Shown piece after piece: positions 1 to 48,860 of a DNA stretch of 64,000 nt. Positions within the stretch are counted from its first letter, which is position 1. The number at the start of each line of letters is the position of its first letter. The stretch comes from an uncultured Chloroflexota bacterium. GTDB lineage: Bacteria; Chloroflexota; UBA6077; SHYK01. The translations under genes were made by a program, and so were the position numbers. The notes under the pieces are model-generated. The model worked only from the letters and a program-made list of their open reading frames with translations, made no database searches and was not told the origin of the DNA. The stretch lies in contig CAYQJS010000004.1 of the NCBI GenBank assembly GCA_964417895.1, positions 51,724-115,723 of the forward strand, given 5' to 3'.

Positions 1-341
1 CGGCGATGACCACCAACGGCGGAGGCACCTCGGCAATCGTCGAGCGGTACCACAGCGCTCAAGCGCGCACCGCCGAGAACAGATATGCCGGCAACAACCG
101 GTCCCGGTACAGCGATCCCCAGCTCGACGCCCTCATCGACAGCTACAAGGTCACCATCCCGATGGCGGAGCGGATGCAGTACGCGAGTGAGATTGTTCGC
201 ATCGTCACGCAAAACCTGGTGGTCATGCCGCTGTTCTGGGACACCTGGCCGGGCGTGCAGACCAACCGATTGCAGAACGCGAGCGCTGCTTCCAGCGGCG
301 GCGCCGCGGCCTGGAACGTCCACGAGTGGGACATCCAATAG
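1..341 (+). CDS. ABC transporter substrate-binding protein (family 5, peptide/nickel type), C-terminal fragment; 5' end outside window
   Basis: Frame open from window edge; C-terminus ...AAWNVHEWDIQ is paralogous to the C-terminus ...HGWNAHEWDVKA of the full-length SBP at 8617-10332. Confidence 0.75.
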   Translation, partial: AMTTNGGGTSAIVERYHSAQARTAENRYAGNNRSRYSDPQLDALIDSYKVTIPMAERMQYASEIVRIVTQNLVVMPLFWDTWPGVQTNRLQNASAASSGGAAAWNVHEWDIQ

Positions 342-365
342 CCTGAACCACCCGCCCGGCGCGGA

Positions 366-401
366 GAAAGGAGTGCCCCGAGCACTGGGGGCATTCCTTT
401 C
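366..401 (+). terminator. Strong stem-loop downstream of the SBP stop (terminator-like, no clear U-tract)
   Basis: gaaaggagtgcccc (366-379) pairs with ggggcattcctttc (388-401), 14 bp with one G-U, 8 nt loop; 25 nt after stop at 341. Confidence 0.5.
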
Positions 402-617
402 GTCAGCGACCGCCTCCATTTATCGGCGCTTCCGCCCCAGAGCTGGTTCGTCATCGTGGCTGCGGTTCTACTCTGCTCAGCATACGGGGACGACGAGTGT
501 GGGAGCTGGTAAGACCGACGCGTTGAGGCACACCAAGGAACGATAGTGGCGACCGACTGGGTTTCACTGGGCGGCGCGAGCTAAGCTTGGTTTCGCCAGA
601 CCAGAAATTGAGCAGAG

Positions 618-899
618 GTGCTTGTTGTCATGCCCACATTCCGCCCTCTTAGCGCTGACCAACTCGCTGCTTTGCAAAAGCGCCGCGGAGCCGCGGTCGA
701 TCTGACGGAGTACACCGACTTCATTCGAGACCTGCAGGTCGGTGAGGGGGGGCATTTGACCCTCGAATCTAACGAACAGAAGCAAACGGTGAAGCGTCGA
801 CTGACCCGCGCCGCCCATCTGCTGGGGCGGAGCGTTCGCTACCGTCGCAGCGAAGCCAACACCATCAGGTTCGAGCTGGTTACCTCGTCGGCAACATGA
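618..899 (+). CDS. hypothetical small protein
   Basis: 93 aa ORF (GTG 618 or ATG 630), no recognisable motif; non-overlapping, plausible composition. Confidence 0.4.
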   Translation: MLVVMPTFRPLSADQLAALQKRRGAAVDLTEYTDFIRDLQVGEGGHLTLESNEQKQTVKRRLTRAAHLLGRSVRYRRSEANTIRFELVTSSAT

Positions 900-1099
900 G
901 TCCCCGCCGGCTCAAACGCCGGGTGACACGAGGAACCAATAGTGGCCGCCCGTTGCCCGCGCGAGGGGAGCAGGGTTCAGCTGCTCTGCCTCCTGTCGGC
1001 TTCCTGCGCCTTGACGACCGGATCTCAGCGCCTTCGTGACCGGCCAGATGATCGTCGTCGGCGGCGGCGACGTCATGTATTAGGAGCGAGTTCCGAGAA

Positions 1100-1200
1100 C
1101 TGTCATCCTGAGGCCGCAGGCCGAAGGATCTGATGCGAGTACCGTTTGTGCGTGGTAGTTTACGTTCGTGACAGATCCTTCGCTTCGCTCAGGATGACAG
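1100..1200. repeat. REP/MITE-like hairpin element, family 1 (gtcatcctgag...gaaggatct)
   Basis: tgtcatcctgaggccgcaggccgaaggatctg (1101-1132) is the inverted complement of cagatccttcgcttcgctcaggatgacag (1172-1200); same motif recurs at 26475, 28405-28660, 38455, 45744, 52000. Confidence 0.85.
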
Positions 1201-1219
1201 ATTGTTGGCGGAGTGAAGG

Positions 1220-2029
1220 ATGACCGGCAGCGAACGTGAAGTGCCCTCGCGCGGCTCGCCCGTCAGTTGGGACGCGACCGCCTATGACACCAGGCACGCC
1301 TACGTGGCTCGCTACGGCGCCGACCTGGTGGATACGCTGGCGCCCCTTTGGCGAGAGCGCGTGCTGGATCTCGGCTGCGGAACGGGGCATCTGAGCGCGC
1401 GCATCGCCGCGCGCGGAGCAGAAGTCATCGGCATCGACTCATCGCCTGAGATGATCGAGCGAGCGCGAAGCAACTACCCGGGCCTCGACTTCCGTCTGGC
1501 TGACGCAACCGACTTCCAGCTCGATGAGCCCGTCGACGCCGTGTTCTCCAACGCCGTCCTGCACTGGGTGACGGTGTCAGCCCAGGACTCCGTTGCCGCG
1601 TGCGTTCGGCGTACGCTTCGACCCGGCGGCCGATTCGTCGCGGAGCTGGGCGGCAAAGGCAATGTCGGCACGATCATCGCCGCGCTCCGTTCGGCCCTGG
1701 AGACCATCGGCGGTCATGCGATGAGTCCCGACCTCGATCCCTGGTACTTCCCCACCATCGGCGAGTACGCCAGCGTGCTGGAACGACAGGGCCTGGCGGT
1801 GGTTCACGCGGAGCTCTTCGACCGGCTCACCACGCTCGAAAACGGGGATGACGGCATGCGCGATTGGATCGAGATGTTCGCCGCCGATTGGCTTGCGCTC
1901 GTGCCCCGCGGCCGGCGGCGGGCGTTGATCTCCGCGGCCGAGCGCGGCATGCGCGACGCCCTTTACCACGACGGCCACTGGACAGCGGACTATCGGCGCC
2001 TCAGGATCATGGCCCTACGCGAGTCTTGA
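1220..2029 (+). CDS. class I SAM-dependent methyltransferase
   Basis: Motif I VLDLGCGTGHLSARIAARGAEVIGIDSSPEMIERAR; 269 aa; ATG start. Confidence 0.85.
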   Translation: MTGSEREVPSRGSPVSWDATAYDTRHAYVARYGADLVDTLAPLWRERVLDLGCGTGHLSARIAARGAEVIGIDSSPEMIERARSNYPGLDFRLADATDFQLDEPVDAVFSNAVLHWVTVSAQDSVAACVRRTLRPGGRFVAELGGKGNVGTIIAALRSALETIGGHAMSPDLDPWYFPTIGEYASVLERQGLAVVHAELFDRLTTLENGDDGMRDWIEMFAADWLALVPRGRRRALISAAERGMRDALYHDGHWTADYRRLRIMALRES

Positions 2030-2146
2030 GGCGCGAGGCGTGAGGGGGGACCCACGAAGGCTCACGAGCCTTGAGCCCCGTTAGCGCCTTGCCCCCTCAC
2101 GCGTCATAGCTCACTAGGAGCGGATCGTGTAGTCTGCCGGGAGGGT

Positions 2147-3295
2147 GTGATTCTAAACAAAGCGAACAAGCCGCTAATCCGGTGGACGTCTGGCCCGGGG
2201 ACCGTGAGAGCTGACGCTAGAGAGGACGTCAAGACCATCGCCGCCTCGAGAGAAGACGAGATCCATCAAGTCGACTTCTCAGCCCCGCACCTCGTGATCC
2301 TCGGTGCTGGGGCGAGCCGGGCGGCATTTCCTCATGGCGACCGGAATGGGCAACAACTTCCTCTAATGGCCGACTTTACTCAGATCGTGCCGGTCTCAGA
2401 TCTGTTGGACTCTCATGGAATCGTTCACAGGGGGCAAAATCTGGAAGATATCTACACCCATCTGTGCGGCACTCCCGAACTCGACGAGGTCTGCGCGGAG
2501 CTGGAACGGATCGTCTCCTCCTACTTCTCTTCACTCGCACTCCCGGAAACACCGTCGCTCTATGACCACCTGATACTCTCGCTCAGAGGTAAGGATGTAA
2601 TCGCGACATCCAACTGGGATCCGTTTCTCATCCGGGCAGCCAGACGCAGTGGGTTGGCCTCTGGCGAGATTCCGCTCATGCTATTCCTTCATGGCAATGT
2701 GCTCGCGGGCTTCTGTCAGCGCGACCTTGTTTTCGGTGTCAGAGGTACGCGCTGCTCGACCTGTGGTCAGATCTTCTCACCGTCCAAGCTGCTATACCCT
2801 GTCGGGAACAAGGATTACAATGCGGACCCCATGATTGCCAATGCCTGGCGCGCTGTACAGGAAGCGTTACGTCGAACCTTCATGGTTACCGTATTCGGAT
2901 ACAGCGCACCGCAGTCCGACGCCGCCGCAATACGCCTCTTCCTCGATGCATGGGGGGACGGTGCGGCTCGACAAATTGAGCACTTTGAGATCATCGACAT
3001 AAGGCCGCCCGAGGACCTCCGCAAACAGTGGGCCCCGTTCATTCACACCCATCACTACTCCGTGCTCGCCTCGCCCTACGATTCTTGGATGTTCAAGCAT
3101 CCTCGCCGTACAGGCGAAGCCTACCGTAACCAGTACTTAAAAGGGATGTTCATCGACGACAATCCGATTCCCCGAGAGGCTTCGTTCGAAACTCTGACGC
3201 ATTTCTACGCGCCCTTGCTCGAGGTCGAACGCGCAACGCCATCGGTTAGTGAATCTGAAACTCCGAACCCGCCCGGTGGCGATTCTACACAGTAG
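2147..3295 (+). CDS. SIR2-like (SIR2_2 / DHS-like NAD-binding fold) domain protein with extra C-terminal region
   Basis: VILGAGASRA (Rossmann GAG), ATSNWDPF (cf. TxNYD), FLHGNV (catalytic-His position), CSTCGQ, VFGYSAPQSD (GYSxxD); visibly lower GC than flanks. Confidence 0.6.
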   Translation: MILNKANKPLIRWTSGPGTVRADAREDVKTIAASREDEIHQVDFSAPHLVILGAGASRAAFPHGDRNGQQLPLMADFTQIVPVSDLLDSHGIVHRGQNLEDIYTHLCGTPELDEVCAELERIVSSYFSSLALPETPSLYDHLILSLRGKDVIATSNWDPFLIRAARRSGLASGEIPLMLFLHGNVLAGFCQRDLVFGVRGTRCSTCGQIFSPSKLLYPVGNKDYNADPMIANAWRAVQEALRRTFMVTVFGYSAPQSDAAAIRLFLDAWGDGAARQIEHFEIIDIRPPEDLRKQWAPFIHTHHYSVLASPYDSWMFKHPRRTGEAYRNQYLKGMFIDDNPIPREASFETLTHFYAPLLEVERATPSVSESETPNPPGGDSTQ

Positions 3296-3659
3296 GAGCC
3301 CATCGCGTGACGATGCCTAGGCTGCTATGCTGCCCTGCTGGGTATATCGACGCGCGGTCGCGTGACGCGTTTGCGCGATCTACTTCGTCCTACGGGTTTC
3401 GGGTCGTCTAAGTCCCAACGTAGCGCGCCTACCGGCATGTCGAATTGGCGGAGTGCTTCAACTCTTGATCGGCCAAGGCATTAGGCCCGCACCTCGTCGC
3501 GGCTCACCGGGGCACCCGCACCGTGTCTTTCGGCGCGCGATTCGCCTCACGATCTGCGCCCTGCCCCACCATCAGTTTGGTGACCTGCCCCTGTCCAAGC
3601 TGCAGACCGGGGTTGCCGCAACGGTTTTTCGTTCCGATTGGGGTCGCCGGCGATCGGGA

Positions 3660-4679
3660 CTACGCCCATATGTCACAACTCGGGAGGGCCCTCCGCAGAC
3701 GATCAAGCCCTGCGTCGGTGATCGCCGTGTCGACGAGGGCAAGCATCTCGAGCTGAGTCAGCCCGCGCAACGCTTCCAGCCCCGCGTCGGTGATCGCGGT
3801 ACCGCTGAGAGTAAGCTTCCGGAGCTGAGTCAGCGCGCGCAGCGATGCAAGCCCACCATCGGTGATCGCCGTGTCGTTGAGTTCAAGCGACTGGAGGTGA
3901 GTCAGCCCGCGCAACACTTTCAGCCCCGCGTCGGTAATGGCGGTACCGTTGAGGTGAAGGCTCTTGAGCTGAGTCAGTCCGCTCAATGCTGCCAGCCCTG
4001 CGTCGGCGATTGCGGTATCGTTGAGCCACAGTGTCTCCAGCTGCCTAAACGCGCGCAACGCTGCCAGCTCCGTCCCGGTGATCGCGGTCTCCCATAGACC
4101 AAGCTCCTCGAGCTGGGTCAACCCGCTCAACGCCGCCAGCCCCGCGCCGGTGATTTTTGTATGGCCGATGGAAAGCGTCCTCAGTTGCGTCAACCCGCGC
4201 AAGGCTTCGAGCCCGACGTCGGTGATCGCCGTGTAGGCGAGCTCAAGCGACTTGAGTTGAGTCAGCCCACTCAATGCCGTAACGATTGCGTCAGTTACCT
4301 CACTGTCTTGCGAGGAGTACGCGGGGCTCAGGCCTTTCCCAGACGAGAATTCCAAACCATAAAGATCATTCGGGCCTAGCGCCACGAGGGGCGAAGGATC
4401 ACCGAGACGATCTGGGTATATCCGCAGAGTCACCAGAGCATTGGCACTGACAGTGACGTCACCCCTGGCATCCCGCCATTCAGACGCATAAGTCTGCCCC
4501 TTACCCTCATTGGCAATGGCGTACTCACCGATCGACCGGTCCCTGGGGAAGCGGATCGTTCGCGTGGATAGCCGGGCAAGATCGGCCAAAGTGCGGCCAA
4601 CCAGTTGCGACGAGGCGAGCCGTGCGAGCGCGGACTGGCGCGCTGGCACTAGGCTCTGCGTAGGCTCCTCGGGCTTCAT
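3660..4679 (-). CDS. leucine-rich repeat (LRR) protein, no signal peptide
   Basis: About 9 tandem 24-aa repeats LxGLTQLxxLxLxxTxITDAGLxAL after a ~135 aa unique N-terminal region. Confidence 0.85.
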   Translation of the reverse strand: MKPEEPTQSLVPARQSALARLASSQLVGRTLADLARLSTRTIRFPRDRSIGEYAIANEGKGQTYASEWRDARGDVTVSANALVTLRIYPDRLGDPSPLVALGPNDLYGLEFSSGKGLSPAYSSQDSEVTDAIVTALSGLTQLKSLELAYTAITDVGLEALRGLTQLRTLSIGHTKITGAGLAALSGLTQLEELGLWETAITGTELAALRAFRQLETLWLNDTAIADAGLAALSGLTQLKSLHLNGTAITDAGLKVLRGLTHLQSLELNDTAITDGGLASLRALTQLRKLTLSGTAITDAGLEALRGLTQLEMLALVDTAITDAGLDRLRRALPSCDIWA

Positions 4680-5461
4680 TGCGCACCCACCAGTGTGTCC
4701 AGCATTTCCAGCCGGCTTCTTGTCGACGCGATATTCTCGTCGAGGGTTGCCGCCAACTCCTCTAGAATGTCTCGGCCTTCGACCATTCCGTGCTCAGCTT
4801 TGATTTTCAACTGGTAGAAGTCTGAGGCTTCGATCTCGGCGATCTCGCTGGCTATGGCCTTCAACCTGGTCGTTACCAGTGCGACCTTGCGGATAGCCCG
4901 GATGAGTTCATCAGCGGTCCCAGCTCCGGTTATCGCCTCCGGCCTCGCCTCCCAGTCGCGAAGAATAGCCGCGAGCCGTGCCTCATCCCCACTCTCATAG
5001 GCCTGATTAGCTTCAGTCATGACTCGCACACGCTCGGCGCGATCGATGTCCGTCCCCAAGTCGGGGTGGACTTTCTTTGCTACCTCCCTGTAGATCTTCC
5101 TGAGTTGCTCAGACGGCGTTTCTCCTTCTTTCGCGTCGGGCGGAACAGGCTCCCCAACACTCTCTGCGCTCTCCTCTGCCCGCTGCCGAGTCCGTTGAGC
5201 TTCCTCGCGAGCGGCTTTGTCTCCCGGGGCCAGTTCGGCGAGAGCTTCGGCTACTCGGGCTTCTAATTCGTCGAGTTCGGCGTACCGGCGCCCAACAACA
5301 CGCAGGTAGGCCCGTTGGAACCGGTACATCTCAATGAGAAGAGTCGCTAGGACGGTCTCCTGGTCAGCCAAGTCGGTCTCAAGTGCATTGAGGTCGGCGA
5401 GCTTTCTGGCCAGCTCCTCCTCTTCCGGTGTGACCCACGGGATCATAGACATGACCAGCAC
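4676..5461 (-). CDS. J-domain (DnaJ-like) protein with coiled-coil flanks
   Basis: KIYREVAKKVHPDLGTDIDRAERVRVMTEANQAYE (HPD motif); stop overlaps the LRR gene start (ATGA, 4676-4679). Confidence 0.8.
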   Translation of the reverse strand: MLVMSMIPWVTPEEEELARKLADLNALETDLADQETVLATLLIEMYRFQRAYLRVVGRRYAELDELEARVAEALAELAPGDKAAREEAQRTRQRAEESAESVGEPVPPDAKEGETPSEQLRKIYREVAKKVHPDLGTDIDRAERVRVMTEANQAYESGDEARLAAILRDWEARPEAITGAGTADELIRAIRKVALVTTRLKAIASEIAEIEASDFYQLKIKAEHGMVEGRDILEELAATLDENIASTRSRLEMLDTLVGAQ

Positions 5462-5700
5462 AACGCGCCGTCAACGCGGCCAGTTGGCCTCTCGGTCAGC
5501 GAGCGCGGACGATGGAAGTAGTCGAGTGGGAGCACGCTGTAGCGCTGATCGACCCCCGCATTGTCGTAGATCGCCATAAGTGCGGCCAATCGGCACGGGC
5601 TCAGCTCAAAGCTCCGCGCCACGGCGTCCTTTACGTCCTCGCGGTGCAGCACGAAGGGCGGGGTAACGGTCGCTGTAGCGACTATCGTCTGCACTGCCAC
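5443..5700 (-). pseudogene. type III polyketide synthase (chalcone-synthase-like), N-terminal ~70 aa remnant
   Basis: MAVQTIVATATVTPPFVLHREDVKDAV...AIYDNAGVDQRYSVLPLDYF resembles type III PKS N-termini; similarity ends near 5470 where the J-domain gene begins; no KS catalytic region. Confidence 0.5.
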
Positions 5701-5859
5701 GCCTTGCCCTTCTAAGCACGCTCGATGACCACCACCGGCGCGGTTTCAGTCAACCTCCCGACCTCCCCCGGACCTCCCCGACCACTGCGCCGCTTGAAGC
5801 CGCTGAGCCGAGGCCCCTGGCATCCTGTAGGCGATGCTACCATAGCGTCGGGAAGCTGA

Positions 5860-6508
5860 ATGGCGCAGATTGGCGCCCGGGCCCCGACCGCTCCGCCGCC
5901 GGCTGTGCCGGAGCAGGGGCCGTGGCTGCGGCGCGCGCTCGCCTGGTTCCCGCTTCTCCACCCCTTCCCGTCGCTGGTGGTGGCGGCCACGGGCGGCGGG
6001 TTCGCAGCCGTGGCCAGCCCACGTCCCCTCGCACCAGACCACGCTCTTTTCTTGGTCGACGCTGGGGGGAGTTGCCATCGGCAGCTGGATGGGCCTAACC
6101 GGTCGGCGCGCTGCTTGCCCTGGCGCTGCATCTCGCGAACGCGTTGCCCGACGACGAGCCTGACCGCGAGGCGAGCGCCGGTAGCCTGGTTCAATTCCTG
6201 GGGCGACGAGGCTCGCTCGTGATCCTCTTCCTCTCCTTCGGCCTGGCGCTGATTTGCCGCCTGGCCTACATCGACTCGCTCAAGCACCAGAGCTACGCGG
6301 GCTGGCCATCCTCCTCGGAGGCACCATCGGCCTGGCGAGCCGACCCGCTACTGACTGCGTCGCCTTTCCCTTCTTGGCCGTAGGCAGTGCACCCCTCGCC
6401 ATCGACGTGTGGCCACGCTCCTCGCCTAGCTCCGGTCATGGTGGCCGGGGGCACCGAACGCCATTGCGGGATCGTGTACCGTGGCCCGGAAACCCTGGGC
6501 CGCATTAG
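5860..6508 (+). pseudogene. possible UbiA-like prenyltransferase, broken over three frames
   Basis: LLHPFPSLVVAATGGGFAAVA (frame 1), LALALHLANALPDDEPDREA (NxxxDxxxD-like, frame 3 from 6099), AILLGGTIGLA..FPFLAVGSAPLAI (frame 2); no intact ORF. Confidence 0.3.
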
Positions 6509-7311
6509 CTGGCCCCTGCTCCCGGTGACGAATCAGAAAGACGCGTCAGGTCCTTCACCAGGGTGGCGAACGCCGACCGAACCGTCGGCGCCATTCCAGT
6601 CTTATGGTCGAACAGATCGAACGCTTCCTGCAGATAACCGGCAGCCCTAACCAGATAGTCAGGGTCGCTCGGTAGGTAAGGATCGGAAGGCACGCGATGA
6701 TAGCGGTGCAGCGGGTTCTGACAATGCTGAAGGTTGTAGCGCTCAACGTGCTGCCACGTGTTGTGAACAGCCGAGCTGAACGGCACGTAGGCAAAAGTAT
6801 AGAGATCCTCGCAGCCAGCCTGCTCCGCCATCTTGAGGGTGCTGACGCCCGCCCAGCTTCCCACGTTGACTTCCGTGAGGAAGCCGAATCTTTGCGAGTT
6901 CAGCCAGGCTTCGCCCGCCTCGATTATCGGATCGGCGGCGGCATCGTCGCCGCGTTCTGTCAAGAGTCTCTTGCGGTGCTCAATCGCGAGCTTCTGTTGG
7001 CCGAGCGCGTACGCGATGAACTTACGGGATCTATCCAGCGGGTCTTCGAAGATCCAGGCCAGGTTGATCAGATTGTCGACCATGCTTCTGAGGACCAACG
7101 GGGCGATATGCCCATTCCAGATCGGAGGGGCGAGGGCAAACCGCGTCACAAGCGTCACTTGTCTCGCCAGAAGCCCGCCCACCACTTCGTGGATCTCACC
7201 GACGGACAGATCCAGCTGCCATCCTCGCCAGCGATCATCCAACTCCCCCAGTGCCGTGTCCACGTATCGGTTCACGACCACGCCGAGGGCTTCCACGTTC
7301 GGTTCAGTCAC
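6505..7311 (-). CDS. hypothetical helical protein (family not confidently recognised; possibly DUF5677-like)
   Basis: 268 aa ORF; overlaps the upstream gene by 8 nt, which implies an operon; lower GC. Confidence 0.6.
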   Translation of the reverse strand: MTEPNVEALGVVVNRYVDTALGELDDRWRGWQLDLSVGEIHEVVGGLLARQVTLVTRFALAPPIWNGHIAPLVLRSMVDNLINLAWIFEDPLDRSRKFIAYALGQQKLAIEHRKRLLTERGDDAAADPIIEAGEAWLNSQRFGFLTEVNVGSWAGVSTLKMAEQAGCEDLYTFAYVPFSSAVHNTWQHVERYNLQHCQNPLHRYHRVPSDPYLPSDPDYLVRAAGYLQEAFDLFDHKTGMAPTVRSAFATLVKDLTRLSDSSPGAGAS

Positions 7312-8074
7312 CTTGTGTCTCGATCTCGCATGGTTGAAGCTCTAGACCTCGGTTCCAGAAATACCGAGACCAGGCTTCAGAGGCACTCGTTGCCCTCTCG
7401 CCTATTAGCATGCTTACGGTCGCGCGCACCGCTGATGCCACGCGTCTCGATACTTCAGTCCGCGGGTAGTTCTGGACCTCTGGGAACCTCGCCAGGGATA
7501 CCGTCGGGGCGACTACCAAGGTTCCGCTAACGAAACCGAGGTATACAGCGTTCGCCTGCGCCTGCAGCGCGGGCAAACTAGTCCTATCAAACAGCGCGTC
7601 CAAGATTATTCGCAGGTGAGCCAAACCGGCGGAGACTCCCTCCTCATTAAGAATGTGCGTGGTTAGGAAGCGGAGTGGACACTCGGGGTAATAGCTCAGG
7701 AGCGGCGCCAAGGCCTCAAGCAGGGGCCCGAGGTCTCCGGTCCAGCATAGGTGCTCAACGATCCGCGTCTGCTGCGCGTCGTCAAGAATGGAGTACTCGC
7801 TCAGAAAAGCGAACCAGCGCTCACCCGGCGACCCCGTCGAGTCACGGGCCGCCGTCGCCAGCGCGAGCGCGAGGGCGGCACCTTTAGCCCAGCCGTGCCG
7901 GTCGTTCAGGGTTGCCAGCCAGAGCATCTCCGGGAGAATCTGATCGACCCATTTGACCTCCGTAAGCGGCAAGGCATCTACCAACGGTGGGGTGAATCGG
8001 CTCCCCTGCTGACGATGATCAGCCAGCACACTCCGCCGACGCGCTCTACTCACGTGGCCAACGTGTTCTTCCAC
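7304..8074 (-). CDS. hypothetical protein, first gene of a two-gene operon
   Basis: 256 aa ORF, no recognisable motif; 8 nt overlap with 6505-7311. Confidence 0.55.
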   Translation of the reverse strand: MEEHVGHVSRARRRSVLADHRQQGSRFTPPLVDALPLTEVKWVDQILPEMLWLATLNDRHGWAKGAALALALATAARDSTGSPGERWFAFLSEYSILDDAQQTRIVEHLCWTGDLGPLLEALAPLLSYYPECPLRFLTTHILNEEGVSAGLAHLRIILDALFDRTSLPALQAQANAVYLGFVSGTLVVAPTVSLARFPEVQNYPRTEVSRRVASAVRATVSMLIGERATSASEAWSRYFWNRGLELQPCEIETQGD

Positions 8075-8240
8075 TATGGAGGCTCCTCCGGACGACTGCC
8101 GAGCAATCTCGGTCGCCTGTTGCGCGCGCGACGGGCGGTGTGCCCACCGCTATTTGGCCGTCGTGCTTGCTGCTTGGCGCGTCCAGAGTGACGTATTAGG
8201 CCGGCCCAAAAAGGGGCCAAGCGATCCAGAGGAGCGCCAT

Positions 8241-8540
8241 ATGTCAAGCGCGGCCATCGTACGAGCCGGCAGTAAACTGAGCAAGTCAGACCAAGCGCTC
8301 TACGCCTTCCAGGCCGAGAAGGAGCGGCGTAGCGGCTCGATGCCCACCGTCCAGAGCTACTCGCGCCTGCTCCAGCAATTCTTCGGCCTGGTGGGAACGA
8401 CGCCTGACCGAGTCACGAGCCCGGACACCTTCTGCTGAGCGCACGGGATCGGGCTCGGGCAAGCGGCCTCGTTCGTCACGATCGGCGCCTGGCTCACCTG
8501 CCTCTCGCCCTTCCACAGTTTCCTGATCCGCATGGGCTGA
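8241..8540 (+). pseudogene. tyrosine recombinase/integrase, N-terminal SAM-like domain remnant with in-frame stop
   Basis: SD agaggag + ATG 8241; ...MPTVQSYSRLLQQFFGLVGTTPDRVTSPDTFC*AHGIGLGQAASFVTIGAWLTCLSPFHSFLIRMG*; internal TGA at 8436; catalytic domain absent. Confidence 0.5.
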
Positions 8541-8616
8541 GGCAGGCGAACCCTTGCCAGGTTATTAAGCGGCCCACAACACTCGTGCGCGCCTCTCCCG
8601 CCTCATGGCTCACGCC

Positions 8617-10332
8617 TCACGCCTTGACGTCCCACTCGTGGGCGTTCCAGCCGTGGGTGCCGCGGGACGTCCGGGCCACGACGTGCAGCACTCGCTGGTT
8701 CACCAGGATAGGCTCGATGGTGTAGAAGATCCCCATGAGGAGCACCTGGTCGGCGATGTGGGTGATGATCTCCGAGGCGATGGCGACGCGGTCCTGGCGG
8801 GCTACCGTGACATAGTACCGATCGATGAGCGCGTCGAACTCCGGGTTCGCATAGCGCGAGATGTTCGACCCCGTGTAGTTGGACTCCTGCCGCGGTGACT
8901 GCGTGCTGTGGAGGTTGCTCAGCGCCCGAAGCTGGTTCGGTCGCTGCGTGAGCTGGAACGCCGGGAAGCTCGTTACCCATTCCGCGTCCGATAGCCGCTG
9001 CGTCGGCACGATCATCGGCTCCACCGCGACACCAGCCTTCTGCCAGTAATCGGCAATGGAGAAAAGGAGCTTACGCCGCAAGTCGTCGCCGGCGTTGGCG
9101 CGCACCTCCAGCGAGAGCTTGCGGTTCGCGGCATCCACGAAGCTCCCGTCCTGGCCTCTCGTGTAACCGAGGCCTTCGATGATCTGCGTCGCCCGCCGCA
9201 CATCGAACTCGTACTTCGCTACGAGGGGGTCGATCTCCGCGAACTCGGGCTCCGTGGGGCTCATGTAACTGTGGGCCACAGAAGTGAGGCCGGCCATGAA
9301 CGTGTTCACCATCTCCTGGCGGTCCATGGCATGAAGCAGAGCGCGGCGGAACTGGGGATCGGTCACCAACACGGGGCTCGGCGTGAGGAACTGCGGCCAC
9401 AGCTGGATCCACGTGTACGGAGCAGCTTCCACCCGCCCTTCGCGCCATCGCTCCTGGACCTGCGTCGCCTCTTCGACCGAAAGGCCCCTCCCCATCGTGA
9501 AGTCCACGGCGCCAGCGAGGATGCTCGCCACGAGCGTGTTGGAGTCAGCGAGGAAGCGGATCTCAACCTCGTCGATCCTGGGTCGCCCCAGCGCGTAGCG
9601 ATCGTTCGCCTCTACGACCAGGTGGCTACCGCGCTCCCAGGCCTTCAGCTTGAACGGGCCTGTGCCCACGAACTCGTGGCTCCAGTGAGGCAGCTCGACG
9701 TAGCCGGCCTTGTTCTCCATGTAGGCCCGCTCGAGAAGGTGCTTTGGCTGCGGCATGCCGAGCCCCGGCGAGAACAGCGCGTCGGCCCCGATGTAGGGCA
9801 CCCTCCACCGGGCGATCACCGTGTGGGCGTCCACCGCCTCCACGCCCTCCAGGTTCTGATACGCCCGGTCGCGGAAAACACCCACATCGCGGTCCTGAAC
9901 GACCTGGGCTGTGAACACCAGGTCGTCTGCCGTAAACGCGGCGCCGTCGTGCCACTGGCTGTTGGGCCTGATCCTCCAGGTCGTCTCCATTCGGCCGTCA
10001 GGAAATACTTTCCAGAGACCGTTCTCGAGGCTTGGTATCGCCTCGGCCAGTCTGGGCGCGAGGGCCGCGCCCTTGTCCAGGGTGCTGAGCCCGGCGTGGA
10101 CGAGCTCTTCGAGGGCCTCCGAACCGGGCGGTGTGTACGCGCCCGCGGAGCTGATCTGGTAGTTCAGGGCGAACGGGTCTCCCAGGATCGCCGCGGTCAC
10201 GCGCTTCGGCGCCGATGGCCGGGTGACCTGCGCGTTGTCGCTCGGGGTCCGCGGGCCTTGCGGCGCGGCGCAGCCGGCCACGACGAGCGCCAGGACGAGG
10301 CTAAAGGAACGGAGTAGGTTGGCGGTGCTCAC
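8617..10332 (-). CDS. ABC transporter substrate-binding lipoprotein (family 5, peptide/nickel type)
   Basis: GTG 10332 preceded by ggaggtg; signal peptide with lipobox LVVAGC; family-5 SBP length and composition; the track start at 10359 lies inside a heptamer array. Confidence 0.85.
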   Translation of the reverse strand: MSTANLLRSFSLVLALVVAGCAAPQGPRTPSDNAQVTRPSAPKRVTAAILGDPFALNYQISSAGAYTPPGSEALEELVHAGLSTLDKGAALAPRLAEAIPSLENGLWKVFPDGRMETTWRIRPNSQWHDGAAFTADDLVFTAQVVQDRDVGVFRDRAYQNLEGVEAVDAHTVIARWRVPYIGADALFSPGLGMPQPKHLLERAYMENKAGYVELPHWSHEFVGTGPFKLKAWERGSHLVVEANDRYALGRPRIDEVEIRFLADSNTLVASILAGAVDFTMGRGLSVEEATQVQERWREGRVEAAPYTWIQLWPQFLTPSPVLVTDPQFRRALLHAMDRQEMVNTFMAGLTSVAHSYMSPTEPEFAEIDPLVAKYEFDVRRATQIIEGLGYTRGQDGSFVDAANRKLSLEVRANAGDDLRRKLLFSIADYWQKAGVAVEPMIVPTQRLSDAEWVTSFPAFQLTQRPNQLRALSNLHSTQSPRQESNYTGSNISRYANPEFDALIDRYYVTVARQDRVAIASEIITHIADQVLLMGIFYTIEPILVNQRVLHVVARTSRGTHGWNAHEWDVKA

Positions 10333-10352
10333 GCGCTCACCTCCGAAAACGA

Positions 10353-10394
10353 GTCCCAAGTCCCAGGTCCCAAGTCCCAGGTCCCAGGTACCGA
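10353..10394. repeat. tandem heptamer array, 6 x GTCCCAG/GTCCCAA
   Basis: gtcccaa gtcccag gtcccaa gtcccag gtcccag gtaccga, between the amidohydrolase stop and the SBP start. Confidence 0.9.
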
Positions 10395-10401
10395 GCCGCC
10401 T

Positions 10402-11511
10402 TCAGTTGACCGCCGCCAGGCCCGCCATCGGCTCCCGGCTCTTACCGACCGGGAGCCCGAAGAACTCGGCGGCGTTGAGCCCGAGGATCCGATCCTTCTG
10501 CGCCTCGGTGAGGCGCGTGTTGGTCACCACGTCATCGATGCACGACTCGCCGGCGCCGCCCAGACCATGGGGGAAGTCGATAGCCATCATCAGGCGGTCC
10601 GCGCCGTAGCGCTGCGTGACGTACGTCAACGTCTCCTTCTCCGTGCTAACGTTCGCGGCGATCCAGACCTGGTCAAGGTACTCGTGGGGTCGCTTGGCGA
10701 TCAGCTCGTTGACGCCCTCCTGGTCGTACACCTCGTTGAGTCGATCCATGAGCGTGGGCAGATAGCCGCAACCTGTCTCGAGGAGCCCGATGCGGAGGCG
10801 CGGGAACATGTCGAACACACCTCCGCAGATGAACGAGGTGATGGCCAGCGTTCCCTCGTACAGGAAGCCAAGCGCATTGTCGAGGTGAAACTTGGTGAGA
10901 CGTTCGAGGCCCAGCAACACGCCGCTTCGGCTGGGGTGGAGGTAAAGCGGGACCCCCAGCTCCTCGATCCTGGCGTAGACGGGCCAGAACTGCGGCTCGT
11001 CCAAGTTCTGGCCGTTCACATTGGTGAACATGGTGGCCGCATGGAGCCCGAGCTGCTTCACCGCCCGCTCGATCTCTTCGACCGCGCGCGTTGGGCTCTG
11101 CATCGGCAGGTGCGCGATGCCGAGGAAGCGACCGGGGAACCTGTTCAGGACCCGGGACATGGCGTTGTTGTAGGACTGGCACACGCTCGTCGCCAGATCC
11201 GCGTCCACGTCGTAGTGGAAGCACTCGTTGGAGGGCACAAGGACCTGCATATCGATGCCAAGCCGGTCGAGGAACTCGATGCGCAGCTCCGGCTCCCAGA
11301 ATCCGGGCCGCTGGCGCCGAAGCTGCAGGAGGTTCGGCAACACGTCGTGCTGATGGTGCGACATGTGGGCCTCTCGCTCCGGATAGGTGATCCGACAGCG
11401 GCCGCCGGCGTCGCACCATAGCCGCGGTCGGCGGTCGCCGAACCTGGGGTCGACGTCGTCGAACACATCCTTGGGGAAGAAGTGCGAGTCGCAGTCGATG
11501 CGTATCGCCAT
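10402..11511 (-). CDS. amidohydrolase family protein (amidohydrolase_2 / ACMSD-like)
   Basis: Start taken at MAIRIDCDSHFFPKD (ATG 11511, ggagg SD upstream); metal-binding DxH at N-terminus; the longer track ORF would overlap the upstream MFS gene. Confidence 0.85.
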   Translation of the reverse strand: MAIRIDCDSHFFPKDVFDDVDPRFGDRRPRLWCDAGGRCRITYPEREAHMSHHQHDVLPNLLQLRRQRPGFWEPELRIEFLDRLGIDMQVLVPSNECFHYDVDADLATSVCQSYNNAMSRVLNRFPGRFLGIAHLPMQSPTRAVEEIERAVKQLGLHAATMFTNVNGQNLDEPQFWPVYARIEELGVPLYLHPSRSGVLLGLERLTKFHLDNALGFLYEGTLAITSFICGGVFDMFPRLRIGLLETGCGYLPTLMDRLNEVYDQEGVNELIAKRPHEYLDQVWIAANVSTEKETLTYVTQRYGADRLMMAIDFPHGLGGAGESCIDDVVTNTRLTEAQKDRILGLNAAEFFGLPVGKSREPMAGLAAVN

Positions 11512-11552
11512 CGTCGTCGAGCCTCCGATCGAGAATGGGCTACAGCATAGCG

Positions 11553-12830
11553 CTATCCGGCCTTGCGTGCCGTCGCTGGCTCGGTGGCGCCGGCCATTCC
11601 CGCCGTTTGCCTCTTCAGGGGTTCTTTCACCTGGGTCCCGAGAACGAGCGCTGTGGCCATTGCCGTCGCGCACAGAAACATGAAGGCTATGCCGTAGTCA
11701 TAGGCCTCCGCCAGGTAGGCGAAGGCCAGCGGGCTCGCCACCTGGCCCACTTCACCGACCGTCCGCCAGACGCCAAAGAACTTGCCGCGCACGTGCGCGG
11801 GTGCGATGTCCGATCCGATCACCTGCATATTGCCCGAAGTGATGTTCTGGGCCGCGTGCATCACCAGGAATGCCACCACGAAGGCCTCGAAGGGAAGCCG
11901 CAGGAACGCCGTCGCGGCGATGAAGGCGAGGCCCAGGCTCAGCAGGACGAAGCCGGGTACGACCGTCTTCTTGCGGCCGAAGCGATCCATGATGGCGCCT
12001 GTCGAGAAGACGATGGGGATGCCGACGGCGCCCGCCATGGTGCTGATGACGCCCAGGGTTTCCGGGCCGATGCCATACCAGTAGACGGGGTACAGATTGA
12101 CGGCGCCGGAGTGGAGCGTGCCCCGGGTCAGCGAGGCGAGGAACTGGGCGAAAAAGAAGATGAGCACGGGGTAGACGAGCAGCGCCGCGATGGTGGACTG
12201 CGAGGGCCCGCCTCCTCCCTCGGCCCGCGCCGACCGCCCGCTGGCCGGCGCGGTCTCACGCAGCACCTTGTAGCTGGGGATGATGGCGAGCAGCGACAGG
12301 ACGCCGTGGAGGATGAAGGGCACACGGATGTCCCAGGCGGCGGCGAGGAATCCGCCCGCGGTCGGACCCAGCAGTCGACCGACGGTCTCCATGCCCAGCA
12401 TGCCGGTGATCTGTCGGCCGCGCTGCCGATCGCCGCCGGTGTCGGCGATCATGGCCAGCCGCCCCAGCATCCACATCTGCTGCGCCCACCCGCCGAGAAA
12501 GCGGTACACCAGCAGCTCGGGGAACGACTGAGCAGAGGCCGTCAGAAACGACGACAGCGCCACCAGCACGGGACCGAGCAGGACGACCTTCCGTCGGCCG
12601 AATCGGTCCACCAGAAAGCCGGTGGGAATCGAGGCCAGGAGGCCGCCCAGCATGTGGGCGACGAACACCTGGGAAGCGACGCCGAACGAGACGTCGAAAG
12701 ACTTGACGTACACGGGGAGCGCGGGGATGGCAATGCCCGCCCCGAGCGCGAGCGTGGCGGCGGGGAGATAGAGGGAAAGGATGTTCTCCCGGGACAGGAC
12801 GCGGGTGTTGGTCCGCTGTTCTTGGCTCAT
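11553..12830 (-). CDS. MFS transporter
   Basis: 12-TM-like hydrophobic pattern; DRFGRRK motif between TM2 and TM3. Confidence 0.85.
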   Translation of the reverse strand: MSQEQRTNTRVLSRENILSLYLPAATLALGAGIAIPALPVYVKSFDVSFGVASQVFVAHMLGGLLASIPTGFLVDRFGRRKVVLLGPVLVALSSFLTASAQSFPELLVYRFLGGWAQQMWMLGRLAMIADTGGDRQRGRQITGMLGMETVGRLLGPTAGGFLAAAWDIRVPFILHGVLSLLAIIPSYKVLRETAPASGRSARAEGGGGPSQSTIAALLVYPVLIFFFAQFLASLTRGTLHSGAVNLYPVYWYGIGPETLGVISTMAGAVGIPIVFSTGAIMDRFGRKKTVVPGFVLLSLGLAFIAATAFLRLPFEAFVVAFLVMHAAQNITSGNMQVIGSDIAPAHVRGKFFGVWRTVGEVGQVASPLAFAYLAEAYDYGIAFMFLCATAMATALVLGTQVKEPLKRQTAGMAGATEPATARKAG

Positions 12831-13261
12831 GGCTCATTCGCCGCACTGAGCAGACGAACTCGCGGAAAACGCGCCTGCGCGACATTGAAAAGCCGCGCAT
12901 CGGCAGTCCACAAAGGCGCGCCGTATCGCTCGGCAACGGCGAGGTAAGCGGCGTCGTACGCACGAAGCTGGCCCAGCTCGGCTGCGATCTCACACGCCCG
13001 GGCCACAAGATCTGAATCGTGCGGCTTGTGGATCGCACGCCGCAGAAAGTAGCCGAGCGCCTCGATCGATTCCCGGGCCGTGATTCTTCGGCGAAACGCC
13101 TGGAGGCGGAGGATTGACGCGACTTCGTAGTCCAAGAGAGCCGGAGCGACGACCGCCTCCGCCGCCTCTTCCCATCGGGCCCAGATCCTTTCGGCGCTCT
13201 CCGAGTCGGATTCCGGAAGAAACAGCTTGATAACAAGACTTGCGTCAACACACACCGTCAT
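12827..13261 (-). CDS. vapC: type II toxin VapC (PIN domain)
   Basis: MTVCVDASLVIKLF... and ...AYDAAYLAVAE... acidic PIN residues; start 13261 overlaps the antitoxin; stop overlaps the MFS start (ATGA at 12827-12830). Confidence 0.8.
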   Translation of the reverse strand: MTVCVDASLVIKLFLPESDSESAERIWARWEEAAEAVVAPALLDYEVASILRLQAFRRRITARESIEALGYFLRRAIHKPHDSDLVARACEIAAELGQLRAYDAAYLAVAERYGAPLWTADARLFNVAQARFPRVRLLSAANEP

Positions 13262-13646
13262 CAGGCTCCTCGCCCCGTACGACCCCCAGAGCTTCGATCG
13301 TGGGTATGAGGGTTCGACCCGCAAGCATGCGCCGCGACTTCCGGGCACCCTCGATCCACTGATGCATGAGGGCACGTAGTTCCTGCGATCCCTCCGGAGG
13401 CAGGTCGTCATCAGGGACCTCGCCACGGATGATCCCGATCGCCTGGACCGAGGAAATTAGGCTTCGCGGCTTCAGTTCGGGATGTAGCGCCGCCTCGACA
13501 TCGTCACGAAACACAAGCTTGCTCCGTCGGTCCGCAGGGTTGGGATGGGTGGGCACTCCTGTTCGACGCACGAGTCGCGTCATTCGAGACGCGTTTACCC
13601 CGTACTCCGCTGCCGCCTCTTTCAGCGTGAGGAAATCGGAGGGCAT
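13245..13646 (-). CDS. putative VapB-type antitoxin with N-terminal HTH (excisionase/MerR-like)
   Basis: FLTLKEAAAEYGVNASRMTRLVRR HTH; two internal A(I/L)G(I/V)(I/V)RGExPDD repeats; 17 nt overlap with vapC. Confidence 0.6.
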   Translation of the reverse strand: MPSDFLTLKEAAAEYGVNASRMTRLVRRTGVPTHPNPADRRSKLVFRDDVEAALHPELKPRSLISSVQAIGIIRGEVPDDDLPPEGSQELRALMHQWIEGARKSRRMLAGRTLIPTIEALGVVRGEEPDDGVC

Positions 13647-13891
13647 GACGCAATCTTAGGGCGGCCCTGCAACTATCTGCAAGTACTTTTCGGGCCTCAG
13701 CCAGAGAGGGATTCCAGCAGCGGGCCGGCTGGAATCGGGACGCCGAGCGCTACTACGAACAGGACATAGAAGCCAGGCCGGCTGCGGCGGAGAGAACGAT
13801 GGACAGAGTCCATGACTCACCCGCCGCGACCTTCAAGTAGAGAAAGGTGACCAGGAGGATGGCGACGGTGAACCCCAGAAGCGCGATGGCG

Positions 13892-14213
13892 ACTGCGAAT
13901 CCGATGAGAGGTGGTTCGCGGCGATGAGGCTGCCGGCGCCCTCCATGTTGTCCACGACGATGTTCGGGTTGCCGGGGATGTGGTTGGGAAGATGTCGGGA
14001 GAGGACCCGCGCTGTCGTGTCGAAGCCTCCGCCGGGCGCGAAGCCCACGACGATGGTGATCGTCTTGCCCCGGTAGAAGTCGGACACCGCTTGCGCGCCG
14101 CCCCCGGCGGCCTCGCAACGTGACGGCGGAGCCCCCGTGCGTGACGTACACGCGGCCATCGCCAGCGCAATGAGGTGTCGAAGGCCCCATCGAGACCATT
14201 GGTGCAGCACCAT
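13892..14213 (-). pseudogene. tripartite tricarboxylate transporter substrate-binding protein (TctC/Bug family), N-terminal remnant
   Basis: FYRGKTITIVVGFAPGGGFDTTARVLSRHLPNHIPGNPNIVVDNMEGAGSLIAANHL, then similarity is lost; a different frame downstream encodes only a TM-helix tail. Confidence 0.55.
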
Positions 14214-14222
14214 CTCGCCTCC

Positions 14223-14287
14223 GTGACTGCTCGTCGTGATTGCCTGTCGTAATTGCCTGTCGTGATTGCCTGTCGTGATTGCCTGTA
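14223..14287. repeat. 5 x 13-bp tandem repeat (gtgattgcctgtc)
   Basis: gtgactgctcgtc gtgattgcctgtc gtaattgcctgtc gtgattgcctgtc gtgattgcctgta in a divergent intergenic region. Confidence 0.9.
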
Positions 14288-14350
14288 TCGTAGATACGCG
14301 GCGTTCGGCACGCTAGTTTCCTCCAGATAGCCCGCCACTTCATGGTGTCC

Positions 14351-14787
14351 ATGCACATCTTCACGATCGGTTACAGCAAGAGGAGTGCACCCGAGTTCTT
14401 CGGCGCACTTCGGCGAGCGGGCATCAGGCGGTGCGTTGACGTTCGTCTGGCCAACACGTCACAGCTTGCCGGCTTCACCAAGCGCGGCGATCTTCCATTC
14501 TTCCTCCGAGAGCTCTGCGGCGCGGAGTACATCGCCGAACCGCTCCTCGTACCGACCCGGGACCTGGTCGACGCCTACAGAAAGGGGAAAGCGAGCTGGG
14601 AGGAGTACGAGCGGCGCTTCCTCCAGCTGCTGGCTGAGCGCAAGGTCGAGGTCGAACTAGACCCGAGGCTGTTCGACGTCCCCACCGTCCTCCCTGCGTC
14701 GAGCAAACCGCCGAGCATTGCCACCGGCGGCTGGTGCTCGAGTACCTCGAGGATGCGTGGGGCGAACTCTCGGTCACGCATCTCTAG
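14351..14787 (+). pseudogene. DUF488 family protein, frameshifted
   Basis: MHIFTIGYSKRSAPEFF...FDVPTVL in frame 2, then CVEQTAEHCHRRLVLEYLEDAWGELSVTHL* in frame 1; the switch is in the C-run at 14689-14694. Confidence 0.6.
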
Positions 14788-14810
14788 CACCTGTGCTACG
14801 ATGCAGCACC

Positions 14811-15095
14811 ATGAAACGGATCAGCGTGCGGGAGCTGCGCCAGTACGCGAGCGTCTGGCTTCGCCGCGTGGAGGCGGGGGAAACCCTTGAGATCACCAAT
14901 CGCGGGCGACCGGTGGCGGTGCTGGCCCCGCACCCCCAGGGCGACGAGCTAGAGCGGCTCATCGCCTCGGGAAGGGTGACACCTGCCAAGGGCGATCTGA
15001 TCGAGTTCCTCAAGCGCAATCCACCTCTCGAACCAGTGCCCGGCCAGCCCCTGCCCTCAAAGGTACTAGAGGACATGCGTGCTGACGAGCGCTGA
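14811..15095 (+). CDS. type II antitoxin, Phd/YefM family
   Basis: MKRISVRELRQYASVWLRRVEAGETLEITNRGRPVAVL; overlaps the downstream vapC. Confidence 0.8.
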   Translation: MKRISVRELRQYASVWLRRVEAGETLEITNRGRPVAVLAPHPQGDELERLIASGRVTPAKGDLIEFLKRNPPLEPVPGQPLPSKVLEDMRADER

Positions 15096-15498
15096 CCTCG
15101 TTTACCTCGACTCGTCAGCGCTGGTGAAACTGGTCGTCCACGAAGCCGAATCAGCAGACCTGGATCGGTACCTCAGCGGCCAGCACGGTCGCGCTTCCTG
15201 CGTTCTCGCCTGGGTGGAGGTAGTTCGAGCAGTGCGAGGTCAGGGCCCCTCGGCTGTGGCGCGTGCCCGCGGTGTCCTGGCAGACCTCCTTCTTGTTCGA
15301 CTGGACAACGACATCCTAGACACGGCTGCGGAGATCGATCCACCTGCGTTGCGCAGCCTCGATGCAATCCATCTCGCCGCGGCACGCGCCCTCGGTAGCA
15401 GGCTCGCGACCGTCGTGACCTACGACCGAAGAATGGCCCAGGCTTCCCGAGAATTGGGCATGAAGGTCGCAGCACCGGGCACAGCACTCAACTCTTGA
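15079..15498 (+). CDS. vapC: type II toxin VapC (PIN domain)
   Basis: VYLDSSALVKLVVHE...LDAIHLAAA...TYDRRM; GTG start overlapping the antitoxin end. Confidence 0.85.
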   Translation: MLTSADLVYLDSSALVKLVVHEAESADLDRYLSGQHGRASCVLAWVEVVRAVRGQGPSAVARARGVLADLLLVRLDNDILDTAAEIDPPALRSLDAIHLAAARALGSRLATVVTYDRRMAQASRELGMKVAAPGTALNS

Positions 15499-15731
15499 CC
15501 CCTCGAGATCACCCACCAAGAGCCCGGAGCCAGTGCCGTGTGTGGTACGCTCCGACACACACGCGAAGCCGTCCTGGGCGTGTCCCTGGGGGTAGCTCCA
15601 TGAGGCGTCTTACCCGTGTCCTGAAGCACACTCGGATGCCGCGCCTGATCGGCGCTGCTATCTGCGGTGTCGTCGTCCTGGCCGATTGGGGATCGCGGAT
15701 GCGGTGCCGATCTCGACGAGGAGTGTAAGCC

Positions 15732-48784: not shown

Positions 48785-48860
48785 GGCGACGTAGCCAAGT
48801 GGTTAAGGCGGGGGTCTGCAAAACCCCTATGCGGCGGTTCGAATCCGCCCGTCGCCTCCA
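48785..48860 (+). tRNA. tRNA-Cys (GCA), CCA encoded
   Basis: Cloverleaf drawn by hand: acceptor GGCGACG/CGTCGCC, anticodon stem GGGGT/ACCCC, loop CTGCAAA, T-arm GGCGG-TTCGAAT-CCGCC, discriminator U73. Confidence 0.9.

Follow-up and report, generated by a model that had tools for sequence, protein, structure and literature searches.

We analysed a stretch of 64,000 nucleotides from an uncultured Chloroflexota bacterium, hereafter the window, in which two convergent genes for family-5 solute-binding proteins (SBPs) bound a spacer of about 8 kb (about 341–8617). From left to right, the spacer holds a 412-bp repeat unit, a segmental duplicate with a methyltransferase gene, a long hairpin, a gene for a protein of predicted SIR2 fold, an operon encoding a leucine-rich-repeat (LRR) protein and a J-domain protein, the remains of a type III polyketide synthase (PKS) gene and of a probable UbiA-type prenyltransferase gene, two overlapping genes that appear related to DitA of the Aditi system, and the remnant of a tyrosine recombinase gene (Table 1). 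A sequence-only reading had interpreted the part between 2040 and 8540 as one decayed integrative element flanked by convergent SBP paralogues. The flanking SBP genes do end at 341 and 8617, and all the features it listed are present at or near the positions it gave, as judged from the listing of open reading frames (ORFs) and from family scans. We consider it likely, instead, that the whole spacer is a mosaic accessory island that arose by several independent gene gains and deletions rather than from a single element.

Composition and anatomy of the spacer

The source genome (5.66 Mb in 142 contigs) has a mean guanine-plus-cytosine (GC) content of 65.2% (sd 2.8% in 1-kb windows). Along the island the GC content is 57–62% at first, 69.5% in the next segment and 60–61% in the last; the island is compositionally tri-partite, or patchy, rather than uniformly low in GC. 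The SIR2-like gene (56.9%) falls at the 0.7th percentile of the 1-kb windows, followed by the LRR gene (62.1%), the J gene (59.3%), the DUF5677 gene (59.9%) and the gene for the N-terminal half of DitA (DitA-N, 61.0%), with the PKS/UbiA stretch (5701–6504) at the 95th percentile in between the J and DUF5677 genes. The lower GC content claimed earlier for the island was borne out for the SIR2-like, J-domain and two-gene-operon stretches (57–61% against 65.2% for the genome) and failed for the PKS/UbiA relic. The GC content of third codon positions (GC3) splits the cargo from the flanks more cleanly than the GC content of whole genes, with 0.65–0.74 in the six cargo and remnant genes against 0.81–0.87 in the flanks.

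The two genes of the high-GC relic are divergent, and both retain their 5' parts around a common region of 160 bp, while the 3' parts are gone in both. The J/LRR block replaces the 3' part of the PKS gene, and the DitA-like block that of the UbiA-like gene, with the cut at the end of the DUF5677 gene. Because the relic is truncated on both sides by differing lower-GC modules, we suppose at least two separate events, which is our main argument for a mosaic. The three gene modules of the island were never linked to each other elsewhere at the loci examined for each family, and where DitA-like pairs occur in other defence islands, SIR2 and J genes are missing.

Three observations suggest that this accessory cargo came by horizontal transfer: the GC content of its codon positions, its absence from relatives in the order and the position of its nearest homologues in other phyla. 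Among 38 other genomes of the order, neither the SIR2-like gene nor the DUF5677 gene was found, and the J gene was found in one, which makes the J gene look acquired here. The best homologues of the cargo, at 49–62% identity, come from other phyla, and every cargo gene is present as a single copy in the source genome. Both the low GC3 and the near-absence from the order bear out the earlier interpretation in so far as it takes these genes for accessory cargo.

Table 1. Features of the spacer and of its two flanks, in window coordinates
Feature	Position	Strand	Basis
Family-5 SBP paralogue, 3' end, native left flank	3..341	+	ORF listing; GC3 0.87
412-bp repeat unit with 93-aa ORF (618–899)	539..950	+	Genome self-comparison; ORF GC3 0.68
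Segmental duplicate with class I SAM methyltransferase copy (1220–2029)	1019..2030	+	88.9% nucleotide identity to C4:45169-46181
Long imperfect hairpin, 75 nt, after methyltransferase stop	2027..2100	+	-42 kcal/mol, z = -2.76
Stand-alone protein of predicted SIR2 fold, intact	2147..3295	+	AlphaFold fold search, family motifs; GC 56.9%
Cytosolic LRR protein, J-protein partner	3660..4679	-	LRR_4, E = 4e-30
Class C J-domain protein	4676..5461	-	HPD motif, family homologues; overlaps LRR gene by 4 nt
Type III PKS remnant	5443..5700	-	Alignment to 355-aa PKS
Probable UbiA-type prenyltransferase wreck, three frames	5860..6504	+	PF01040, one frame; GC 69.5%
DUF5677 protein, putative DitA C-terminal half (profile positions 307–443)	6505..7311	-	PADLOC PDLC03826, E = 1.1e-6
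Putative DitA N-terminal-half protein (profile positions 3–236)	7304..8074	-	PADLOC PDLC03826, E = 1.3e-7
Tyrosine recombinase remnant, N-terminal SAM-like domain only	8241..8610	+	phmmer homologues
Family-5 SBP, native right flank	8617..10359	-	Family scan; GC3 0.86

Three intact cargo modules

The island carries three intact cargo modules, unrelated to one another, of which the J-protein with its tagged partner is the most novel. The J-domain/LRR pair had been named from the letters alone, and the LRR match, the HPD motif and the overlap of the two genes (Table 1) uphold it. The J-protein consists of a coiled-coil N-terminus, a J-domain with the HPD motif at residues 132–134 and a conserved C-terminal region, and H132, P133 and D134 are invariant across 25 members of the family. 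Its match to Pfam DnaJ (E = 3.9e-4, 20.9 bits) falls below the cut-off of 27.8 bits; it has 290 homologues of about 260 residues, some of which carry PF00226. The LRR protein begins with a conserved N-terminal tag (residues ~9–37), followed by at least six LRRs of 24 residues (72-nt period, 3706–4281).

The first three homologous contigs had, after the J gene, a gene for WG repeats in one case and for a WD40-like protein in two, each with an N-terminal peptide in common with the LRR protein of the window. We then surveyed 80 J loci fetched from named genomes of many phyla. At 73 of them the downstream gene begins with the same tag, usually with an overlap of 1 or 4 nt; the tag covers ~35 residues with the consensus IVPxxxQALAxRSxALVxRGLRDLA. 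The remaining seven loci are accounted for by a contig edge (3), a tag-only stub (1) and an absent partner (3). Among 34 representative partners, the bodies were TPR (10), LRR (7), GGDEF (6), receiver (5), WD40 (3) and Sel1 (3) domains, and a further cluster comprises 43 acidobacterial partners with WD40-like bodies. Judged by these comparisons, the J/LRR pair appears to be a member of a conserved and widespread two-gene module, in which a J-protein is accompanied by a tagged partner with an exchangeable body. We found no description of such a module in the searchable literature. In Acidobacteriota it lies among housekeeping genes and is therefore not obviously a defence system. At one locus (L131:4759-6087), the tag of the partner is followed by a sequence (DVTPLSIGFETSGGV) that resembles the beginning of a substrate-binding domain of Hsp70, and at another (L100, ~4770–4880) a tag-sized stub of ~37 residues stands alone before a stop codon.

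The HPD motif should recruit DnaK, and the J-protein and the LRR protein together might act as a dedicated Hsp70-targeting adaptor or client pair. We tentatively propose, as one possibility among several, that the pair represents an undescribed, widespread and modular Hsp70-targeting system, in which the J-protein of ~260 residues is translationally coupled to its partner, the tag docks the partner to the J-protein or presents it to DnaK, and the body is freely exchanged. The acquired LRR version could then link the recognition of foreign proteins to chaperones as a sensor of stress or for defence. Bacteria would then, provided that the coupling is real, have a novel means of directing Hsp70 to selected targets.

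The second module, listed previously as a two-gene operon of unknown nature, is indeed a two-gene operon and can now be assigned: the pair is, by profile and homologue comparison, apparently a split and distant relative of DitA from the Aditi system. The two ORFs overlap by 8 nt (GTGACTGA). Fused homologues of the pair have 508–544 residues, and one of them (544 residues) matches DitA at E = 7e-29; about twenty matches of ~290 residues span only the C-terminal half, and both of those examined (L027 and L029) turned out to be two-gene loci. The second Aditi component, DitB (PDLC03827), had no match anywhere in the source genome at E <= 1 and none among the neighbours tested at three homologous loci. 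Homologues of the pair reside in defence islands, next to a Ppl-like ATPase, a HigBA-like (Gp49/HTH) pair, a Type ISP enzyme, PDC-S31 and an integrase fragment; none was found on viral contigs. The DUF5677 half has many invariant His and Cys residues and a predicted all-alpha structure, and a fold search with its model gave no PDB match, the best hits (E = 0.14) being helical membrane proteins. In a survey from 2024, Aditi was one of the systems for which no assignment to a known domain family was possible (bioRxiv 10.1101/2024.10.26.620412). The two-gene version of DitA without DitB may have an anti-phage function, and its existence suggests another mode of action, or other partners, for the DitA part of Aditi. 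One homologue of the DUF5677 protein (P0143) is fused to a HEPN_Cthe2314 domain (PF18730, E = 1.3e-7), a hint that effector domains of the RNase type can be attached to DUF5677 proteins.

The third module is the SIR2-like gene. Its ORF had no match in Pfam, NCBIfam, PHROGs or PADLOC, and no Pfam family, SIR2 and SIR2_2 included, was reached at E <= 10. The AlphaFold model (pLDDT 82.4), in keeping with the initial assignment, is predicted to have the SIR2-type Rossmann fold: every one of the 36 best PDB matches (probability 0.99–1.00, E from 7.6e-7 to 5.8e-4) is a SIR2 protein, and they include Sir2-Af1, SIR2-HerA, CobB, SIRT6, ThsA, DSR2 and KomC. A profile search of the PDB with the family returned no real sequence match, only chance matches to picornavirus 3C proteases at E >= 0.026. 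More than 4000 homologues of about 336 residues were found, and all of them lack Pfam domains and informative names. Conserved throughout the family are GAGAS, (F/S)NWDP, FLHGN, a three-Cys cluster, FGYxAPxSD, HTHHY and HPRR, and the copy in the window (GAGAS, SNWDP, FLHGN, CxxC) retains every invariant residue. N156 and H182, invariant across 28 members, are candidate counterparts of the catalytic Asn and His of SIR2. The protein thereby seems to belong to a separate, stand-alone and unannotated family of ~336 residues.

Homologues of the SIR2-like gene occur alone in three unrelated contexts, namely a conjugative-element-like stretch, a toxin–antitoxin patch and a housekeeping stretch, and 15 members of the family lie on IMG/VR viral contigs. 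Part of the value of the island lies in this very large and unannotated family, which viral contigs also carry. We considered whether the SIR2-like gene and the J/LRR pair are functionally linked and rejected this, as the other loci of neither family contain the other. The enzyme would consume NAD+ and may act as a one-gene effector of abortive infection. Because homologues align from about residue 45, the true start is probably downstream of 2147, between 2147 and about 2280. In the public annotation the protein (P0001, 309 residues) appears to begin at M74, which would remove the conserved GAGAS loop.

The suggestion that the island carries defence or stress cargo holds in part: the DitA-like pair, with its homologues in defence islands, and the predicted SIR2 fold relate part of the cargo to defence genes, and the J/LRR module is not obviously a defence system.

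Remnants and repeats towards the edges

The PKS remnant is truncated, as had been noticed. Its 85-residue ORF aligns to residues 5–83 of a 355-residue protein that has both chalcone-synthase domains (32% identity, E = 1e-11), and the homology reaches the stop codon of the ORF, which abuts the start of the J gene. We regard the ORF as a pseudogene because the rest of the gene is absent, including the stretch with the catalytic residues. The fragment had no match in Pfam (PF00195 included), NCBIfam, PHROGs or PADLOC, and its identity was settled by a search of genomes across the phylum. The multi-frame wreck beside it is present as described; of its frames, 6099–6383 matches PF01040 positions 151–200 (E = 0.0022, 17.7 bits, below the cut-off of 34.2) and the others match nothing. 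No orthologue of the high-GC relic was found in the family or the order.

The recombinase remnant retains ~123 of ~310 residues. The loss of its catalytic domain had been recognised correctly; two in-frame TGA codons (8436–8438 and 8538–8540) interrupt it rather than one, and it runs to about 8610 rather than 8540. The fragment had no match in scans with hidden Markov models (Pfam, NCBIfam, PHROGs, PADLOC), none of the 16 sites with PF00589 in the source genome coincides with it, and a tblastn search against plasmids gave no match. A phmmer search against 1.8 billion representative proteins found 385 homologues, of which the full-length ones (302–312 residues) consist of Phage_int_SAM_1 and Phage_integrase domains. 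Both TGA codons lie inside the alignments, which continue as far as residue ~123, at the SBP stop codon. Since the catalytic domain is gone, nothing in the island can now excise by itself, and it is plausible that the island is fixed. A second truncated copy, in genus G003 (L040, G003:C51, 1474–1665), has 63 residues, is 62% identical over 45 residues and also lies beside an SBP paralogue; remnants of this recombinase family may recur beside SBP genes, of which the source genome has at least 43 among the matches listed, a huge expansion.

Neither edge of the island looks like the end of a mobile element. No direct repeat of 14 nt or longer joins the edges, and no tRNA gene is near, the only one in the window being at 48785. 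An inverted repeat of 16–22 nt at 2029–2057 and 8603–8624 (16-nt core 2029–2044/8609–8624, 94% complementary), whose right copy overlaps the SBP stop codon, was rejected as a pair of element ends, because it is built of a heptamer, GCGTGAG, that occurs throughout the genome in 11 tandem doublets and in 139 copies of the 9-mer GGCGTGAGG. A 38-nt inverted repeat at 298–335/8626–8663 was likewise discarded as an element edge, since both of its arms belong to the 3' coding ends of the SBP paralogues.

On the left, the proposed boundary at 2040 did not hold, for accessory DNA reaches back to about 341. The duplicated segment comprises the methyltransferase gene with 200 bp of upstream DNA and ends at the stop codon of that gene, exactly where the low-GC DNA begins. 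The 412-bp repeat has a second copy, 92% identical, at C2:169027-169436 (L154), between an SBP gene and a Type IIG restriction–modification gene that is split into 317 and 747 residues (PADLOC REase_MTase_IIG, E = 3e-49), with a HEC-08/DUF3644-like gene beyond the SBP gene; a third copy, 70% identical, lies among housekeeping genes on C1. The repeat may mark SBP-adjacent insertion sites of defence genes. As the methyltransferase duplicate and the 412-bp repeat lie to the left of 2040, the accessory patch is the whole inter-SBP spacer. The hairpin behind the methyltransferase gene, which had been called a terminator, is present; it has no T-tract and is built partly from the GCGTGAG heptamer. 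A search of positions 1–12000 against Rfam gave no match. Separately, 4 kb to the right, there is a second small accessory patch, with GC3 of 0.66–0.78 for the ORFs in 12827–15500 versus 0.85–0.89 in the surrounding genes.

Probable assembly of the island and comparison with known systems

The following history would fit these observations. The divergent type III PKS/UbiA-like pair (5443–6504, high GC) would have been present first, or have arrived first, and each of its genes would then have lost its 3' part. On one side, a lower-GC block with the J-domain/LRR operon and the convergent SIR2-like gene would have replaced it; on the other side, a block with the split DitA-like pair and the divergent tyrosine recombinase gene. 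Loss of the catalytic domain and two new stop codons would later have disabled the recombinase. To the left, the patch would be completed by a 1-kb copy of the nearby methyltransferase gene and by the 412-bp repeat, common with another defence locus. Genus G005, in which the orthologous SBP gene is followed by a convergent SBP paralogue after about 70–80 bp, speaks for such a history.

Several points weigh against it. The search for an empty site among related genomes, as had been suggested, found none: the nearest genomes are of different genera with little synteny, and the left SBP gene has no clear orthologue. Only the pairing of the right-flank SBP gene with the amidohydrolase gene at 10402–11673 is syntenic, being conserved in two other genera (G005 and G001). 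A metagenome contig that is 94% identical (Ga0184637_10024134, L132) ends 7 bp past the point matching window position 8595. The insertion is accordingly deduced rather than seen, because no empty site was found and this contig stops at the island edge. We infer the order and the number of events only from composition and points of truncation, and the whole mosaic could have come from a donor as a unit. Foreign origin may apply to the high-GC relic as well, and the UbiA assignment, probable as it is, is weak. Of the ORFs run through PADLOC, DitA alone was recognised, weakly (E about 1e-6 to 1e-7), and the functions of the cargo are predicted. Finally, the source assembly of 142 contigs has an estimated contamination of 5.18%.

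A single integrase-borne element that inserted with all its cargo between the SBP genes and decayed in place, as proposed at first, would account for the integrase remnant at one edge, for the lowered GC3 across all the cargo and for the 16-nt inverted repeat (94% complementary) at the two edges. We find it unlikely, however, since the composition is tri-partite with a relic of 69.5% GC in the middle, both relic genes are cut by their neighbours, as insertions or deletions within the island would leave them, and there are neither att-like direct repeats nor a tRNA target. Moreover, the edge repeat consists of the genome-wide heptamer, the modules never occur together elsewhere and the accessory DNA extends to the left of 2040.

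A native variable region, in which old residents with low expression and atypical codon use had never been transferred horizontally, seems very improbable to us. The conserved housekeeping contexts of the J/partner module in Acidobacteriota would be in line with it, as would the cargo GC3, which is low but not extreme at the 7th–31st percentile of the long ORFs of the genome. It is at odds, however, with the cargo having been found in at most one of the 38 genomes of the order and yet having homologues of 50–60% identity in other phyla, and with the integrase remnant, the truncated genes and the repeat common with another defence locus. Less credible still is an assembly chimera or binning contamination that would have brought the low-GC blocks in from another organism. 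The fragmented assembly with its estimated contamination could make one suspect it, as could the related metagenome contig, which breaks at the island edge and has another neighbour upstream of the SBP gene. That neighbour is not the amidohydrolase gene but a segment that the source genome has on C5, so that rearrangement around this SBP gene is evident even among close relatives. Against a chimera or contamination, the blocks are inside a contig of 164.6 kb with native genes on both sides, several of their junctions are gene-precise (such as PKS stop and J start, or integrase tail and SBP stop), the related contig matches 22 bp of the junction on the side of the integrase remnant, and blocks of 1–3 kb each are shorter than a typical chimera.

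The mosaic island is thus, in our view, real, horizontally assembled and now immobile, and of an ordinary kind. It is one more case of defence-type and accessory genes accumulating at a recombination-prone site and becoming fixed once the recombinase dies; its value is that three poorly known gene families stand in it together and intact. Like defence islands, and like decayed genomic islands that keep the remnant of a tyrosine recombinase, it has an atypical composition and a patchy distribution, a cluster of defence-like genes unrelated to one another, truncated genes, and an integrase pseudogene at one edge. Unlike them, it lacks att repeats, a tRNA target and a single element boundary, and it is composed around a relic biosynthetic pair between paralogous SBP genes.

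The three modules can be compared with known systems in the same way. The two ORFs of the DitA-like pair together cover positions 3–236 and 307–443 of DitA in Aditi, which consists of DitA and DitB (PDLC03826 and PDLC03827); unlike in Aditi, DitA is here split into two overlapping genes, as at L027 and L029, and DitB is absent. The SIR2-like protein is predicted to share the SIR2 Rossmann fold, the Gly-rich loop, the NWD and HG motifs and a Cys cluster with ThsA of Thoeris, DSR2, SIR2-HerA, Sir2-Af1 and CobB. In contrast to Thoeris, DSR, SIR2-HerA and SIR2-pAgo, it comes without a sensor or partner (no SLOG, HerA, pAgo or TIR), and PADLOC found no partner of the ThsB TIR, HerA or pAgo type among the neighbouring ORFs scanned. 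The J-protein is like the class C J-proteins that aim Hsp70 at one client (HscB–IscU, DjlA, DjlB/DjlC–HscC) in its J-domain with an invariant HPD motif, its non-DnaJ scaffold and its gene beside a specific partner. Unlike in those systems, the partner in the module of the window is a separate protein that is conserved in its first ~35 residues only, and its body can be LRR, TPR, WD40, Sel1, WG or REC-GGDEF.

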